Source: a virus
Taxonomy: Duplodnaviria; Heunggongvirae; Uroviricota; Caudoviricetes
Length of the DNA: 5,381 nt
Virus record (IMG/VR): IMGVR_UViG_2534681647_000007
Strand: one strand, 5' to 3'
The position numbers and the translations under genes are program-made. A model generated the notes under the pieces. It did not search any database. It worked only from the letters and a program-made list of their open reading frames with translations, and was not told where the DNA came from. Below are positions 1-5,381 of this stretch, piece after piece. Within the stretch, counting starts at the first letter, position 1. Each line of letters starts with the position of its first letter.

Positions 1-210
1 TTTCAGTGCATTAAAAATGGCGATGCCTTCAAAGACATCGCCACCCGGTGAATTGATATGGAGATTAATGTGGGTGATATCACCCAGTGCATTCAGTTCG
101 CTGACAAACTGCTTCGCGGTAACTCCCCAGAAACCAATCTCGTCATAAATATAAATATCCGCGTCACCCGGCCCCCCAGCTTGCATCCTGAACCAGGATT
201 TATTCTTCAT
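1..210 (-). CDS. Prohead (head maturation) protease, ClpP-like; N-terminal 70 codons only, gene continues beyond window start
   Basis: Hand translation of the minus strand from ATG at 210-208 gives MKNKSWFRMQAGGPGDADIYIYDEIGFWGVTAKQFVSELNALGDITHINLHINSPGGDVFEGIAIFNALK with no stop to the window edge. The block I-N-L-H-I-N-S-P-G-G-D-V-F-E-G-I-A-I-F-N is the classic ClpP/S14-type protease fold signature seen in phage prohead proteases. Position directly downstream of the portal gene matches lambdoid head-module order. The start overlaps the portal 3' end by 11 nt. Not in the ORF track because it has no in-window stop. Confidence 0.75.
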   Translation of the reverse strand, partial: MKNKSWFRMQAGGPGDADIYIYDEIGFWGVTAKQFVSELNALGDITHINLHINSPGGDVFEGIAIFNALK

Positions 211-1702
211 GCTGGCTTTCGGTGTCGCGCTGATACTGTCGTTCAGTTCCGGCACTGTTGCCTCCTTTGTCGTTGACGGGGTCAGTATCAAAGACCAGCC
301 CCAGTCTGCTGTTTTCATCAATTTCAGCCTTGCGGCGACGTTTGACCTCATCCGGATTGCGCCCACCGGCACGCACCCAGTCAGATTCTGTCGCTGCACC
401 ACCCCGGATCTGAATTCTCCAGGCTTCAGCTTCCTTAACCGGGTCGATCCACGGCATCACCGGACCGGAATACGTCGCGTTATATAGCGTTTTCATCTCC
501 ACATCCGCCGGAATTTTCAGCAGACCTGCCGCAACCACCATATTCAGCCATGTCCGGTACACCGGGCGGGTTACCGCGCCAATAAAACAGTCCTGCAGGA
601 TCAGGTAACCATCCGTGGACTCGACCAGCTCCTGCCGCTGGGCGCTGTAGGTGCCGTTATAGTTACGCGCCGCACTGGAAAAACTCAGACGACTGCCTGC
701 TGCCACTGCACGCAACTGGCCGTTGCGGAAAGTTTCAAGGTTGGGATTGGGACGGTCAGATTTGACCATGCCGATATCCTCGCCCTTGCGCAAATCGTCA
801 TAAATAATACCCGGGGTGATATGGACTTCCCGCTCGGTCTCTTTGATCCCCGGATCTTCATAGTCCTGTCCGTCACCTTTACGGATATACAGTCCCAGCG
901 CCGCAGCAATACGCGCCGCTGTCAGTTCCGCATCCTCATACTCCTTAAGGGCACTGATCCGCATCAGCACCCCCGATAACATGGATGAGCCTCGCGTCTG
1001 ATGCAGACGACGAGTGAACTTCAGGTGGATCATTTTTCCGGCAGCGATTTCTTTCGTATCACTCTGCCGGCCGCTGACCGGATAATTTTTATAAACCAGA
1101 TATTTTTTCGGTCTTCCCCACTCATCAAGAAAAACCCCCTGATTCAGTCCGGCGGATTCATCAGTGCGCATGGGAACAAAATCCGGCTCCATCGCCTCAA
1201 GCCAGAATGGCACTCCCGCCGTCCGTTCCAGACCGTTTCCCGCACCACTGACCATCTGCGCAAACACTTCACCATCCCGCAGCCAGGTCCGCAGCAGTAA
1301 ACGTTCAAGCACAGGACGGGTATACTGCCCTGTCACATCCGGACTCACGGACCATTCAGCCCACAAACGGCGGATATCCGCAGCCAGCTCAGCCGCCATT
1401 TCCCCGTTTTTTCGTAATGGCTGAGGCTCCACAATAATTCCCCTGGCACCAATCACCCGCTCTTCCAGCTTGTCAAACACACCAATCACCAGGTCATGAT
1501 TGATATCCAGAAAACGGGCCTGCTCCCGCAGGGAAACCGCACCGTATTTACTGAGCTGATCAGCAGAGCGATTTTCCCGCCGGGCTTTATGTGTCCGGGT
1601 CGGTTTCACCGCCTCATAGGCCATGATTAACGCCCTTGAACGCAGTCTGGCTGCTTTCCACCCGGGGGAAAACACGCCGATCACATCATCAATAATTGCC
1701 AT
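200..1702 (-). CDS. Portal protein (lambda gpB-like family)
   Basis: 500-aa ORF lying between a gpW-like gene and a ClpP-like protease gene, immediately downstream of a GpA-type large terminase, which is the lambda A-W-B-C order. Size is typical for lambda-family portals. ATG at 1702-1700 overlaps the gpW stop (TAATG), with a GAGG Shine-Dalgarno 5 nt upstream. Family assignment is by synteny, length and general composition, not by a computed alignment. Confidence 0.85.
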   Translation of the reverse strand: MAIIDDVIGVFSPGWKAARLRSRALIMAYEAVKPTRTHKARRENRSADQLSKYGAVSLREQARFLDINHDLVIGVFDKLEERVIGARGIIVEPQPLRKNGEMAAELAADIRRLWAEWSVSPDVTGQYTRPVLERLLLRTWLRDGEVFAQMVSGAGNGLERTAGVPFWLEAMEPDFVPMRTDESAGLNQGVFLDEWGRPKKYLVYKNYPVSGRQSDTKEIAAGKMIHLKFTRRLHQTRGSSMLSGVLMRISALKEYEDAELTAARIAAALGLYIRKGDGQDYEDPGIKETEREVHITPGIIYDDLRKGEDIGMVKSDRPNPNLETFRNGQLRAVAAGSRLSFSSAARNYNGTYSAQRQELVESTDGYLILQDCFIGAVTRPVYRTWLNMVVAAGLLKIPADVEMKTLYNATYSGPVMPWIDPVKEAEAWRIQIRGGAATESDWVRAGGRNPDEVKRRRKAEIDENSRLGLVFDTDPVNDKGGNSAGTERQYQRDTESQHEE

Positions 1703-1914
1703 TAAAACCTCGCCAGTTTAAATCCCGGTTTTCCCCGCCTGCGGCTCACCATCGCGGCAAGCCTGCGTTCCCACTCCTGACGTCCGGCGCGGATCTGAGA
1801 AAGGCTTTCCAGCGTCAGTTGCTGCCCGTTGAAGATGACAGACTTTCCCTCCAGTACGGCCATTTCCGCTTCACGGTACCGCTGTATCATTTCTCTGGCT
1901 TCTTCTGTGCTCAC
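1702..1914 (-). CDS. gpW-like head-tail joining (head completion) protein; GTG start preferred over the ORF-track ATG at 1938
   Basis: C-terminus MVSRRRGKPGF closely resembles the lambda gpW C-terminus (recalled as ...TQRRRGPAGFYV), and the size is about 70 aa like gpW (68 aa). A perfect AGGAGG Shine-Dalgarno (plus 1921-1926, cctcct) sits 6 nt upstream of GTG at 1914-1912, and that GTG overlaps the large terminase TGA stop (GTGA). The ATG at 1938 has no comparable ribosome-binding site and would add 8 residues absent from lambda W. Confidence 0.8.
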   Translation of the reverse strand: MSTEEAREMIQRYREAEMAVLEGKSVIFNGQQLTLESLSQIRAGRQEWERRLAAMVSRRRGKPGFKLARF

Positions 1915-4034
1915 AACCAGCCTCCTGATGTTATCCATGGATTATCTTCCGCACGCTCCGTCCGCAGTTTTTTCTTCCGGCGACGGCGTTTTTCTGCCCC
2001 GGCCGTCAGTTCCGGGGATACCGTTTCACCAGAACGCTCCTGCGGGAAGACGAGCCACGTTTCCCGCTGTGCCCAGTCCGGTGCGGAGGGCCAGCGGATC
2101 TTTTCGTAACCATGCAGAACGGCAAGCGCATCCGCATAAACCAGCAGGTCAAACGCTTCGTTAGCGCCCCTGCCCGGTTTTCGCCATTTTCCGTCACTGC
2201 CGCGCTCTTCATAGGTCAGCTCATCGTAAAACCACCGCCCCAGCCAGTCGGGAAAGTGGATATAGTTCGGCCCTGGTGTGTCACGCCACAGGGCATTATT
2301 TACACGATCCTTAAACGCATCCGTCTGAACCAGCCACAGCGCGACATCGCCACTGGCTCTGGCACGGCGGGCACTTCTGCCGGTATTATCCGGGAAGGTT
2401 CGGTTAATCAGCCTGTCACGGCGAAGTCCATCCCCCTTGAACAGAAACACCCTGTTGCCCAGTCCGTCACTCCGGCAACGACGCCAGAAACGATAGGCGT
2501 TATCTGTCACCCCGGCTTCCCCTCCCGTATCCACCGCCATGGCCATCAGACGCATGCGCACATCCGGATCAGAAGCCAGCGGCCATGTTTTATGGAACAC
2601 ATCCGTCAGCAACAAATCCCAGTCCTCCGGATATGCCGCCGGATCAACCGGCAGACTTTCACCGTTGGGACTGCAGCGCAGTGAATGCCGGATGTTGTAG
2701 CGATCAACAATCCAGCGTTCCCCCTGCTCTCCGTATCCGGTGATCTGCACAACAAAACGGCGATTTTTACCGCCCTGTACGTCAACCGTTGCCTCAATAA
2801 AACGCACACCATCCGGCACAGATCGCCGGGGAAACGGCTCGGCACGCTGTTCAAGCAGTTCACTTTTACGCTGTTCCGTGGCTGAACGGGGCAGATAGGG
2901 TCGTCCGATATCGGTGTTCACCACCGCTTTCAGGGTCTCTTCACTGCCGGTTCGCTCATACTCTTCTTCTGCCGCCAGCAGTTTAAAAATCAGTTGTTCC
3001 CAGGTCTGAAACGCCGCAGCTGGCCCCTCCATCCAAAATGACGCAATCCGGGAGTTTCGTGGCGTTCCGGTGATACTGCCGTCCGCCGCCGCCCGTTCAC
3101 CTTCACGAAGCCAGATCCCCTGGTTATTCAGTTCGCGTTTCTGCTCAGGGGCAATCAGCCCGCGACAATGCGGACACATCAGACGGGCAGCCTGACCGGC
3201 AGCCACAAAATCCGGGTTATTCCGGTATCCGGTCATGTTATCCATCACCGGCTGAAAATATTCCCCGCAGTGCGGACACGGCCAGTACCACCGGCGGCGG
3301 TCTCCCCGGTTATACAGTGACAGGATCCCCGTTGTTGGCGGTGCCTCATGTGCGCCACCACAACGCCATTTGGTATCGGTGATATCCCGCCCCGGTGAAC
3401 TCTCGACCAGGGTCATCCCCGAGGACATAAAGGTGGTGGTACGCTTTGAGGCCAGCGTGAAGGCATCCCCTTCCCCGTCCACATTTTCAGGGAAACGGTC
3501 ATAATCCGTCAGCGCCACACGACGGTAATCCGAAGAGGAAAAGACGGTGATCGACGGCCAGCCAATCTTCAGGAAGGAGCCGTCAAGAAACATTTTATCG
3601 TGGACGTTGTTGTCATTACGGGAAGGACTGAGGCGCTTGCTGACCTCCGGACTGTGGCGAAACGTCCTGGAAAGACGCGTTCTGGAATGCTCACGCGCCT
3701 TCGTCTCAGTCATCTGCACCACCAGCATATCCGCCGGATCACAGATGATGCCGTACACAATCCAGCCATCAATCAGCCCTTCGGTTTTCCCGGTTCGCGC
3801 AGGTCCCACAAACACCACCGCGTCATATTCACGGGCTGATAATGTATTAATGGGGTCAATCATATAGGGCGTCAGCGATGACTCCCACGGACCGGAAGTA
3901 TTGGCTCCCCGTGGAACCCGCATATAACGCCTGATGGCTTCCGCTACTGGTAACCGGCTGGGTGGGCGAAACAGCGAGGCCACTTCGCGCCAGATATCGG
4001 ATGCGCGGCTATGGCTCTCGTTCACCTGATTCAC
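1911..4034 (-). CDS. Terminase large subunit (lambda gpA family)
   Basis: 707-aa ORF. The N-terminal motif SLFRPP aligns with lambda gpA SLFRPEP at the same distance from the start. P-loop-like GPARTGKTE is present. Paired Cys motifs CPHCGEYF ... CPHCRG resemble the CPHCGEE region of lambda gpA. It lies directly downstream of a Nu1-like gene and a cos site. GTG start at 4034-4032 overlaps the small-subunit TGA stop (GTGA), with GAGG 7 nt upstream. Confidence 0.93.
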   Translation of the reverse strand: MNQVNESHSRASDIWREVASLFRPPSRLPVAEAIRRYMRVPRGANTSGPWESSLTPYMIDPINTLSAREYDAVVFVGPARTGKTEGLIDGWIVYGIICDPADMLVVQMTETKAREHSRTRLSRTFRHSPEVSKRLSPSRNDNNVHDKMFLDGSFLKIGWPSITVFSSSDYRRVALTDYDRFPENVDGEGDAFTLASKRTTTFMSSGMTLVESSPGRDITDTKWRCGGAHEAPPTTGILSLYNRGDRRRWYWPCPHCGEYFQPVMDNMTGYRNNPDFVAAGQAARLMCPHCRGLIAPEQKRELNNQGIWLREGERAAADGSITGTPRNSRIASFWMEGPAAAFQTWEQLIFKLLAAEEEYERTGSEETLKAVVNTDIGRPYLPRSATEQRKSELLEQRAEPFPRRSVPDGVRFIEATVDVQGGKNRRFVVQITGYGEQGERWIVDRYNIRHSLRCSPNGESLPVDPAAYPEDWDLLLTDVFHKTWPLASDPDVRMRLMAMAVDTGGEAGVTDNAYRFWRRCRSDGLGNRVFLFKGDGLRRDRLINRTFPDNTGRSARRARASGDVALWLVQTDAFKDRVNNALWRDTPGPNYIHFPDWLGRWFYDELTYEERGSDGKWRKPGRGANEAFDLLVYADALAVLHGYEKIRWPSAPDWAQRETWLVFPQERSGETVSPELTAGAEKRRRRKKKLRTERAEDNPWITSGGWL

Positions 4035-4507
4035 ATATCGGCCTCATCACAACAGTCAATGACTGCCTTTTCCAGTGTGTCGCGGATCTCATCAACCACA
4101 ATCTGTACTTCATTCAGTTGTGATGCAGTCCACCCCCTGTCCCTCTCCAGCCGGTCAGGCCAGGTTTCCAGTACCTGAACTATCGCTTTCACCACGACAG
4201 AAAAGGACCGCCTGACATCACTGACTGGCACAAGCTGAACAGTTTCATGCTGAAATTTAAGACGCTCGCGCTCGGACTGATACCATGCCTTACGAGCGTG
4301 AGGATCCATATCCTCATCTTCGGAAGATGGTGGTTTTTCCAGCAACGAAGTTATCAAATCCGTCAGGAGATACAGTTTTTTCTTTTCATTACTGCCTGGT
4401 GCAAGAGGAACATCCGCCATTCTGGCGGCAACAGTCTGCCGGTGCAGACCTGAAAGGGCTGCCAGTTGATTAATATTTAACTTCATATTTTTCAGCTCGC
4501 CGTCCAT
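4031..4507 (-). CDS. Terminase small subunit (lambda Nu1-like, N-terminal winged helix-turn-helix)
   Basis: 158-aa ORF. Residues 8-50, MKLNINQLAALSGLHRQTVAARMADVPL, follow the pattern of the lambda Nu1 N-terminus (MEVNKKQLADIFGASIRTIQNWQEQGMPVL). Sits about 190 bp downstream of a cosN-like element and directly upstream of, and overlapping, the large terminase. ATG at 4507 has a GGAGGG Shine-Dalgarno (plus 4514-4519) 7 nt upstream. An alternative start at ATG 4486-4484 would align exactly with the Nu1 start but has a weaker ribosome-binding site. Confidence 0.8.
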   Translation of the reverse strand: MDGELKNMKLNINQLAALSGLHRQTVAARMADVPLAPGSNEKKKLYLLTDLITSLLEKPPSSEDEDMDPHARKAWYQSERERLKFQHETVQLVPVSDVRRSFSVVVKAIVQVLETWPDRLERDRGWTASQLNEVQIVVDEIRDTLEKAVIDCCDEADM

Positions 4508-4519
4508 TTACATCCCTCC

Positions 4520-4692
4520 ACATAAACCGCAGAACAGAAGTGACTCTGTTTTTTTGTAAAGAAATGCCGCCATATAAAGATGTCGAACAAAAAACAACCA
4601 CAATCATCATCTTTTTAATACTAACAGCATTAAAAACAACAAGTTACCATCATGATGATGATGACGATAAAATCACAAAAATGCGCCTTTTT
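4520..4692 (-). promoter_or_regulatory. cosB-like region: AT-rich spacer between cosN and the small terminase gene, with inverted 9-mers flanking an AT-rich core
   Basis: Strongly AT-rich, non-coding, and located exactly where lambda cosB (R3-I1-R2-R1) lies. Exact inverted 9-mers ATCATCATC (4603-4611) and GATGATGAT (4654-4662) flank a 42-bp AT-rich segment, an arrangement like lambda R3/R2 around the IHF site I1. A 10-bp palindrome CATCATGATG is at 4648-4657. Binding-site identity is inferred. Confidence 0.35.
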
Positions 4693-4739
4693 CCGCGCCC
4701 GCCCGCCCCGTGTTCAGGCCCACCCCACCAGGAGGACCC
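4693..4739 (-). other. cos site core: cosQ (GGGTCCT, plus 4733-4739) and cosN-like GC block (plus 4693-4710)
   Basis: Minus-strand read CGGGTCCTCCTGGTGGGGTGGGCCTGAACACGGGGCGGGCGGGCGCGG compares with lambda, as I recall it, ACGGGTCCTTTCCGGTGATCCGACAGGTTACG-GGGCGGCGACCT-CGCGGG. The GGGTCCT heptamer is identical, the spacing to the GC block is 24 nt here against 23 nt in lambda, and the GC block begins GGGCGG. The distance to the small terminase start, about 190 bp, also matches lambda. Confidence 0.6.
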
Positions 4740-4746
4740 GCAAAAA

Positions 4747-4761
4747 TGATAATGGTTATCA
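4747..4761. promoter_or_regulatory. Fur-box-like 7-1-7 inverted repeat (TGATAAT-G-GTTATCA)
   Basis: Matches the Fur-box core TGATAATnATTATCA at 13 of 14 specified positions. Lies 8 bp from cosQ in a non-coding interval. No convincing -35/-10 pair overlaps it, so a regulatory role is uncertain; it may instead be a cos-associated palindrome. Confidence 0.25.
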
Positions 4762-4968
4762 TTTGCAACAAAATCCAGTTTCTTCCACCATCGCACCGGA
4801 CTGGCGACTATGAGGGGACAACACCGCGCTCCGTTAACGCGGTAAACCCCGGTGTGTATCGTTTTTGATTATCCCCGCACACTCTCGCAGAGGAGTCTCC
4901 CTGTCTGGCTGCGGTCTCTGTTAATGCAGGAATACGGTGACAATACCGCGCATGAATAATAAGGTCGC

Positions 4969-5193
4969 TCAACACACTGGCTGTAATGCAGCGGATACCA
5001 TGCGGCATTTAGCGGCATTCATCGTACACTCAACGGTTAGCTCTTCATTCGTGGCATTCACCTGAAAGGTCCTGGAGTGTAATTGCGTACATTTACCACT
5101 GAACGAACCTTCAACAAGAACACGACCACGCTGCAAAATACGGAACGGAATTGTTCCCTGAAAAGGCTTTACGGTTACCAATAATTTCTTCAT
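4969..5193 (-). CDS. Hypothetical small protein (74 aa, four Cys), in moron position between Rz and cos
   Basis: ATG at 5193-5191 is preceded by GGAGA (spacing about 6 nt) and lies 23 nt after the Rz stop, so it is likely co-transcribed with the late operon. Product MKKLLVTVKPFQGTIPFRILQRGRVLVEGSFSGKCTQLHSRTFQVNATNEELTVECTMNAAKCRMVSAALQPVC. The ORF-track version (4969..5211) begins at an upstream TTG. No recognisable family, signal peptide or transmembrane segment. Confidence 0.4.
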   Translation of the reverse strand: MKKLLVTVKPFQGTIPFRILQRGRVLVEGSFSGKCTQLHSRTFQVNATNEELTVECTMNAAKCRMVSAALQPVC

Positions 5194-5216
5194 GCATTCT
5201 CCGAATAACAAAAATA

Positions 5217-5381
5217 CTAGTTAATACACTGAGTGCGGATATATTCCTGAAGCATTCTCAATGCTGCCTGGTCGCTGATGATTCCGTCTCTGATACCGAG
5301 AACGTTTCGTCCAGCAACCGGAGAGAGTTCGACGGCGGCATCATTGCCCACGCCGGAGGTGCCGGTGGCTTCACGCACGGT
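5217..5381 (-). CDS. Rz: Rz i-spanin (inner-membrane spanin subunit), C-terminal 54 codons; gene begins beyond window end
   Basis: Hand translation of the minus strand from the window edge gives TVREATGTSGVGNDAAVELSPVAGRNVLGIRDGIISDQAALRMLQEYIRTQCIN, ending at TAG (plus 5217-5219). This aligns with the lambda Rz C-terminus as I recall it (...SVREATTASGVDNAASPRLADTAERDYFTLRERLITMQKQLEGTQKYINEQCR): the VREAT, SGV.N and YI..QC blocks are conserved. Confidence 0.8.
   Translation of the reverse strand, partial: TVREATGTSGVGNDAAVELSPVAGRNVLGIRDGIISDQAALRMLQEYIRTQCIN
5258..5381 (-). CDS. Rz1: Rz1 o-spanin (outer-membrane lipoprotein spanin subunit), C-terminal portion, embedded in the +1 frame of Rz
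   Basis: The +1 frame inside Rz reads PCVKPPAPPAWAMMPPSNSLRLLDETFSVSETESSATRQH, ending at TGA (plus 5258-5260). CVKPPAPPAWAMMPP matches the lambda Rz1 proline-rich core (CVKPPPPPAWIMQPPP). The embedded architecture is the same as lambda Rz/Rz1. Confidence 0.7.
   Translation of the reverse strand, partial: PCVKPPAPPAWAMMPPSNSLRLLDETFSVSETESSATRQH

Follow-up and report, generated by a model that had tools for sequence, protein, structure and literature searches.

Bor and Lom of phage lambda are the classic cargo of lambdoid late regions. Bor, an exported lipoprotein, is dispensable for lytic growth; its gene is read from the opposite strand and is expressed during lysogeny. In the cultured phage mEp237, two genes, gp60 and gp61, lie directly after the spanin gene. 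Here we describe ORF74, an open reading frame (ORF) of 74 codons in a 5,381-nucleotide stretch of DNA from a virus of the Caudoviricetes (IMG/VR record IMGVR_UViG_2534681647_000007), the whole of which we refer to as the window. ORF74 follows the spanin gene Rz and belongs to the same protein family as mEp237 gp60 (YP_007111433.1; E 8e-33); we call this family A, and the family of gp61 partner B. The best overall explanation, to which we give a probability of roughly 45%, is that ORF74 encodes an accessory late-operon protein with a beta-sandwich fold and a binding role in conflict. On this view ORF74 is a non-essential gene from an E. coli lambdoid prophage, where it sits at the tail of the lysis segment of the late operon. 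It would be made late, co-transcribed with S-R-Rz, and its product would bind a macromolecule of the host or of a rival phage (in counter-defence, exclusion or a similar role) rather than play a direct part in either lysis or packaging.

All genes of the window lie on the minus strand, antisense to the strand given (Table 1). The ORF74 product has 74 residues, MKKLLVTVKPFQGTIPFRILQRGRVLVEGSFSGKCTQLHSRTFQVNATNEELTVECTMNAAKCRMVSAALQPVC, an isoelectric point (pI) of 9.7 and cysteines at positions 35, 56, 63 and 74. A preliminary description of the window had presented ORF74 as a well-formed small gene with a good Shine-Dalgarno sequence 23 nt past Rz. The Shine-Dalgarno sequence and the spacing are as it described, on the minus strand, which it had left unstated. 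It had also called the product basic, with four cysteines; both features hold, with the third cysteine at residue 63 and not at 62. The translation signal is kept across alleles, as GGAG, GGGAGG or a similar purine run lies within 15 nt 5' of the start in nearly all of the 88 loci compared.

Table 1. Positions of ORF74 and its neighbours in the window, and of copies of partner gene B in other loci.
Feature	Position	Strand	Evidence
ORF74 coding sequence, 74 codons plus TGA, ATG start	4969..5193	-	sequence, family match, selection and frame control, AlphaFold model
Shine-Dalgarno GGAG, 5 nt 5' of the ORF74 ATG	5199..5202	-	sequence
Rz (spanin) 3' end, extends beyond the window; stop TAG 5217-5219	5217..5381	-	Pfam Phage_lysis, E 4e-8
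Presence/absence cassette, about 260 bp (ribosome-binding site, ORF74 and a few bases), missing in VT1-Sakai	4954..5216	.	alignment
Conserved non-coding stretch from the cassette to the small terminase gene; downstream cassette edge	4508..4953	.	near-identical in VT1-Sakai
Small terminase subunit gene, DUF1441 type, next downstream of ORF74	4031..4507	-	Pfam DUF1441, E 4e-48
Large terminase gene	1911-4034	-	
Small head-tail joining gene	1702-1938	-	
Portal gene	200-1702	-	
Partner gene B	L083:5265-5471		
Partner gene B	L096:3176-3391		
Partner gene B	L097:5341-5559		
Partner gene B	L101:5384-5605		
Partner gene B	L102:5294-5512		
Partner gene B (mEp237 gp61)	L103:2501-2722		

There is little doubt that ORF74 is a real protein-coding gene, and it is under moderate purifying selection with some fast-changing positions. 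In the ten divergent alleles analysed (protein difference up to 40%), no frame but its own stays open throughout; each of the other five frames contains 1-10 stops in nearly every one of the ten. The median pairwise ratio of nonsynonymous to synonymous substitution rates (dN/dS, or omega) is 0.36 in the ORF74 frame versus 0.9-1.5 in the four frames that are not codon-aligned. A 5-codon indel among the alleles keeps the frame, indels being of whole codons, and the ORF is intact in every fetched locus that carries the gene. The variants that separate 22 near-identical window-type alleles comprise 10 synonymous and 12 nonsynonymous changes, whereas neutral evolution would make 23% of them synonymous (P = 0.019). 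The unique open frame, the in-frame indels, the dN/dS near 0.36, the synonymous excess and the conserved Shine-Dalgarno sequence together lead to this conclusion. The preliminary description had held that a frame disrupted in relatives, or one free of purifying selection, would speak against the gene; the frame proved intact and constrained. The view that the sequence is not a protein gene at all, but an RNA or DNA element or a gene on the opposite strand, is effectively refuted by the same frame analysis. The codon-aligned antisense frame does have an omega of 0.38, as expected, yet it is interrupted by 1-2 stops in nine of the ten alleles. Length is also conserved at 74 residues, the protein profile retrieves relatives down to 25% identity that share this length and the predicted fold, and there is no Rfam match.

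ORF74 is widespread: of 5,426 complete E. coli genomes, 1,182 (~22%) carry it, in up to six copies each, and it is always annotated "hypothetical protein". An identical product in the O157:H7 strain FRIK2069 is WP_000735655.1. The gene occurs in phages that convert their hosts to production of the Shiga toxins (Stx) Stx1a, Stx2a and Stx2c, and the partial H-19B record terminates within it. Residues 1-73 match PHROG 2571 (E 2.8e-28), for which the function is given as unknown. The gene itself is thus not new, as it is a member of PHROG 2571 and identical to an annotated RefSeq hypothetical protein. The earlier statement that the product matches nothing recognised holds for Pfam, NCBIfam and PADLOC, none of which returned a family (Pfam none at E <= 1), and falls for RefSeq and PHROG. 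Its view that a function could not be assigned stands, as the only family match is to that PHROG and no other profile neighbour was significant. The family profile found nothing among PDB sequences (best E 0.8), and a scan of a genome collection with the close alignment gave no confirmed locus.

In a protein search, E. coli and Salmonella yielded 66 clusters that share 56-100% identity with ORF74, most of them exactly 74 residues long. An exhaustive profile search extended the family to 49 representatives at E <= 0.001, with identity down to ~25% and most lengths between 72 and 81 residues; the distant relatives come from Yersinia, Salmonella diarizonae and Scandinavium. Giant multi-repeat proteins (HYR-like repeats, beta-propeller) that appeared in the profile search were judged to be cumulative weak matches. 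Across 88 distinct sequences the conserved positions are M1, K2, V6, T7, F17, Q21, G23, V25, L26, D29 and S32-G33-K34, followed by Y43, V45, A47, V54, A68 and L70. The A domain also occurs within longer proteins (L105:2201-3061 of Escherichia phage PhiR46_1, and P0074, P0068, P0073, P0088, P0094 and P0098). One of these, encoded after Rz, has 286 residues, of which the N-terminal part is helical and the C-terminal part unassigned, and several others consist of A with a C-terminal extension of 40-110 residues. A Pfam scan of the additional parts returned no family.

The basic charge and the four cysteines are a quirk of the window lineage and not family traits. Members of the family have pI values from 4.4 to 10 and carry 0-5 cysteines, some none at all. 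C35 is invariant only in the close subfamily; in the wider family this position is a cysteine in 50%, with alanine or isoleucine next. A cysteine-based metal-binding or disulfide mini-protein is ruled out, as the cysteines are not conserved in the family, and nucleic-acid binding deduced from the basic pI is ruled out by the range of pI.

It is very likely that ORF74 is dispensable accessory cargo of the moron type, as the preliminary description had proposed for the interval between Rz and cos. VT1-Sakai shares both the Rz end and the small terminase with the window, but there the conserved non-coding sequence found downstream of ORF74 begins right at the Rz stop. Because Rz in VT1-Sakai runs directly into this downstream sequence, the ~260 bp form a discrete unit that is either present or absent between shared flanks. 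ORF74 therefore has the insertion between features adjacent in a related phage, and at 45% G+C versus 54% for the window it has the distinct base composition of a moron; a consensus scan found no promoter or terminator of its own above chance. An overlapping ORF of 66 residues (4808-5008, minus strand) that runs across the ORF74 3' end is unlikely to be a gene and was rejected: the cassette missing from VT1-Sakai contains its start, whereas the rest of it is conserved there, and a 1-nt indel falls within it in the related locus L091. The final bases of Rz (ACTCAGTGTATTAAC, 5217-5240) resemble the last bases of ORF74 (AGCCAGTGTGTTGAG, 4966-4985), such that a short imperfect direct repeat flanks the cassette. 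The repeat could have mediated loss or gain of the cassette, or may be due to chance.

ORF74 travels with the end of the lysis block and not with the packaging genes, as indicated by the Rz homologue that terminates just 5' of the ORF in 84 of 88 loci (E. coli and Salmonella), by the 23-nt spacing (35 of 35 strictly measurable loci) and by the varied terminases downstream. Downstream of an identical ORF74, FRIK2069 and PPyecE_EH1910 carry YnfO, an HNH endonuclease and a terminase of unrelated type (Terminase_2), and at least four packaging modules lie downstream of the gene in all: DUF1441 with GpA, Nu1 with GpA, HNH with Terminase_4 and HNH with Terminase_2. These arrangements make it very improbable that the protein is a DNA-packaging helper acting at cos with the terminase. 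Such a helper would fit a gene that adjoins the presumed cos region upstream of the terminase genes and, in the window, the basic pI. However, the same gene precedes four unrelated terminase/cos systems, VT1-Sakai has the same terminase without ORF74, and the charge is not conserved in the family.

The simplest reading of expression is that ORF74 is plausibly co-transcribed with S-R-Rz from the late promoter, because it lies on the Rz strand 23 nt away and has no signal above chance of its own. A consensus scan compared with shuffled sequences found no promoter or terminator signals for ORF74 beyond chance, though weak or non-sigma-70 signals could escape it; the scan gave zero minus-strand promoter-like sites, and the sole terminator-like hairpin sits within ORF74. 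In the L090-type lineage (L089:4510-5004, L090:2470-2964), Rz is longer (164 residues versus 155) and its end shares 4 nt (ATGA) with the ORF74 start, which suggests translational coupling there.

The position after Rz/Rz1 is also the reason for the main rival explanation, in which ORF74 would modulate how lysis is completed (by spanin, endolysin or disruption of the envelope). The near-constant place after Rz, with either the ~23-nt spacer or the 4-nt overlap of one lineage, agrees with such a lysis accessory. Relatives in Yersinia and in mEp237 are also found after lysis genes, and ~31 of 55 A-B cassettes (described below) lie between lysis and terminase genes. Nevertheless, the Rz region of VT1-Sakai is near-identical without ORF74, relatives are also located after Q, in the early region and inside tail modules, and the interval between Rz and cos is a general cargo slot, as lambda bor illustrates. 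In addition, holins, antiholins and spanins act in or at membranes, but ORF74 has no membrane segment, signal peptide or lipobox. On balance we consider a lysis accessory unlikely.

Two AlphaFold2 runs gave the same model, one from a shallow alignment with a predicted local distance difference test score (pLDDT) of 90.2 and one from a more diverse alignment with a pLDDT of 91.3 and a predicted template modelling score (pTM) of 0.77. In the model, strands span residues 2-8, 11-21, 24-35, 39-45, 52-55 and 66-71, with one short helix at 60-63, and the strand cores are conserved in the A family. ORF74 is thus predicted to be a compact single-domain, all-beta protein with a seven-strand beta-sandwich fold, without a catalytic or metal-binding signature. 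The Kyte-Doolittle maximum is 0.76 over 19 residues, and no hydrophobic segment, signal peptide or lipobox was detected in ORF74. Because there is neither a hydrophobic segment nor a lipobox, the protein should be soluble and cytoplasmic, as far as the sequence indicates. The structure prediction recommended in the preliminary description thus produced a clear fold without a significant structural neighbour, as a Foldseek search of the model against PDB and BFVD returned nothing with E below 0.06.

The only Pfam family matched by several relatives is FNIII-A_GpJ, weakly (4 of 26, best E 0.02). Membership in this family (PF24801, of the tip attachment protein J) was rejected, as there was no Pfam match above threshold and no significant profile-profile match. 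The hhalign comparison of the family profile with lambda J gave a probability of 0.2%, and the modelled resemblance to lambda J is likely one of fold class only. The fold nonetheless raises the alternative that ORF74 is a free-standing glycan- or envelope-binding beta-sandwich akin to carbohydrate-binding modules and to the Ig/FN3-like domains of tail tips. Such a protein would be made late and would bind cell-surface or wall material, for example keeping progeny off debris, or would attach to virions. This is improbable: all structural scores are within the range of generic beta-sandwiches, the protein has no export signal and could reach the envelope only at lysis, and just one fetched context is among tail genes.

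The partner B (PHROG 4280, function given as unknown) is a protein of 68-73 residues with the consensus MFV..LKADPDN.GWVLGW.VVR..PWHL.GVYAT...YGSHRLGSDDF, in which DPDN.GW..GW and YGSH..GSDDF are invariant. B is 59-85% identical across contexts where A is merely 25-35% identical, and it ranges from Enterobacterales to Pseudomonas and Halomonadaceae. It had no match in Pfam or PADLOC; one UniRef entry bears the label 'DUF2188', which a Pfam scan did not reproduce. In 55 of 79 B loci on viral contigs, an A gene lies 31-74 nt 5' of B (40 distinct A sequences); in the remaining 24, B is solo or follows unrelated genes. Besides those between lysis and terminase genes, the 55 A-B cassettes comprise nine downstream of a DUF6246 gene, at least some of these within a tail module, two upstream of Rz and 11 that were unclassified. 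A DUF6246 gene is often directly 5' of A-B outside the lysis-terminase slot (L101:4804-4968, L102:4276-4947; 9 of 55), which hints at a larger travelling unit.

Distant A relatives, at 25-40% identity, follow lysis genes in Yersinia, stand solo after the Q antiterminator in S. diarizonae, form an A-B pair in an early region in Scandinavium, and lie in a tail module in a further case. A family members are the variable first gene of a mobile A-B cassette in most temperate Enterobacterales phages, and the pairing is ancestral. Lacking B, the window allele represents a derived lineage, and this B-less form is the usual one in E. coli. No B homologue was detected anywhere in the window by tblastn; the conserved non-coding region lies downstream of ORF74. 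In two E. coli prophages (L085:5182-5397, L086:5182-5397), B lacks its first ~15 codons and overlaps the end of A; there B appears to be decaying while A is intact. We found no known defence or toxin-antitoxin identity for A-B, as neither gene matched PADLOC, and the pairing is not obligate. The A-B pairing, the mobility of the cassette and the fold prediction were not found described in the literature searched.

We speculate that A and B form an unrecognised mobile module in phage-host or phage-phage conflict, in which A is a hypervariable beta-sandwich 'specificity' protein and B its conserved partner, and of which the B-less A is a functional solo derivative whose fold has no close relative. 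We regard this larger proposal as doubtful, on a par with a role in lysis. Were it true, the module might, for example, neutralise a defence system or exclude rivals, and a solo A would be at work in about a fifth of E. coli genomes, including the Stx-converting prophages of enterohaemorrhagic E. coli.

Returning to the proposal of an accessory protein with a binding role in conflict, its mechanistic part, a non-enzymatic binding function in conflict, is tentative. We favour a binding module over an enzyme because the protein is all-beta and has 74 residues, no sequence relative was found in Pfam, NCBIfam, PADLOC or PDB, there is no hydrophobic segment, the cores are conserved and changes fall at variable positions. 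The window-type and L090-type alleles (4969-5193 and L090:2961-3185), 81% identical, differ by 14 nonsynonymous codon changes and one synonymous change, nearly all at high-entropy positions of the family. This pattern is incompatible with the family-average omega of 0.35 (P = 0.001), and fits either a fast-changing binding surface under episodic diversifying selection or a locally relaxed constraint.

Several points weigh against this proposal. The nonsynonymous excess does not significantly exceed the neutral level (P = 0.10), the near-invariable place next to Rz in E. coli and Salmonella would agree with a lysis-related role too, and there is no ORF74 homologue with a known function. A 'conflict factor' is the default expectation for small, fast-evolving cargo and is not drawn from a specific feature of the protein. 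The literature on mEp237, the accession numbers, the PHROG identifiers and the accessory-gene screen contained nothing relevant. Finally, the window allele is without its partner B and deviates from the family at three conserved polar sites (D29G, Y39H and Y43F), so it could be losing function.

These last observations, with the substitution pattern compatible with neutrality, are also the case for the window allele being a decaying remnant, that is, the leftover half of an A-B cassette under relaxed constraint. We consider such decay somewhat less likely than a lysis accessory. The ORF and its Shine-Dalgarno sequence are conserved in the fetched loci, and there is a synonymous excess inside the window-type clade. 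B-less copies are widespread in E. coli, with up to six in one genome, and other B-less lineages (L092 type) retain D29, Y39 and Y43. Moreover, A and B each occur alone in several lineages.

The non-coding stretch between the small terminase gene and ORF74 measures 461 nt. Its conserved part, 4508-4953, is probably the cos/terminase-binding region. It holds a G+C-rich run, CCGCGCCCGCCCGCCCCG, at 4693-4710 and an imperfect inverted repeat of ATC/ATG triplets (4604-4625 / 4643-4664), and an Rfam scan of it returned no family.

As it stands, ORF74 joins the conserved hypothetical genes of phages, and no sign of an unusual mechanism was seen. It is nevertheless carried by a substantial fraction of E. 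coli genomes, often in several copies, including Stx1-, Stx2a- and Stx2c-converting prophages, and it would be made in the same late burst that releases Shiga toxin. If ORF74 affects phage competition, host defence or lysis, it would influence the spread of these prophages. The A-B pairing is a concrete testable unit, as gp60 and gp61 of mEp237 are present in a cultured phage.

Compared with known systems, ORF74 resembles mEp237 gp60 in matching the family profile and in its position after the spanin gene. The two proteins are ~30% identical; gp60 is acidic, has 9 residues inserted behind the first strand and retains B, whereas the window allele is basic, has four cysteines and is without B. 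No member of the A family was found in a published accessory-gene screen (bioRxiv 10.1101/2023.04.06.535777) or in PADLOC. There is no sequence or profile relationship between ORF74 and CBM6/35/36, the PNGase F domains or the FNIII-A/Ig-like domains of lambda J, and ORF74 is a free-standing protein of 74 residues, not a domain of a larger enzyme or fibre as in those cases.

Like lambda Bor, ORF74 sits between Rz and cos, is dispensable and is carried by some close relatives but not by others. It differs from Bor in being on the Rz strand and in the absence of a signal peptide, a lipobox, a Bor/Iss Pfam match and any above-chance promoter of its own. Membership in the Bor/Iss lipoprotein family was rejected, as there is no Pfam match and no hydrophobic N-terminus, and the first cysteine is residue 35, in a predicted strand. 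ORF74 is also like the small accessory genes of counter-defence and exclusion: it is small, free of enzymatic motifs, patchy in its distribution, mobile between slots and rapidly changing at some positions.
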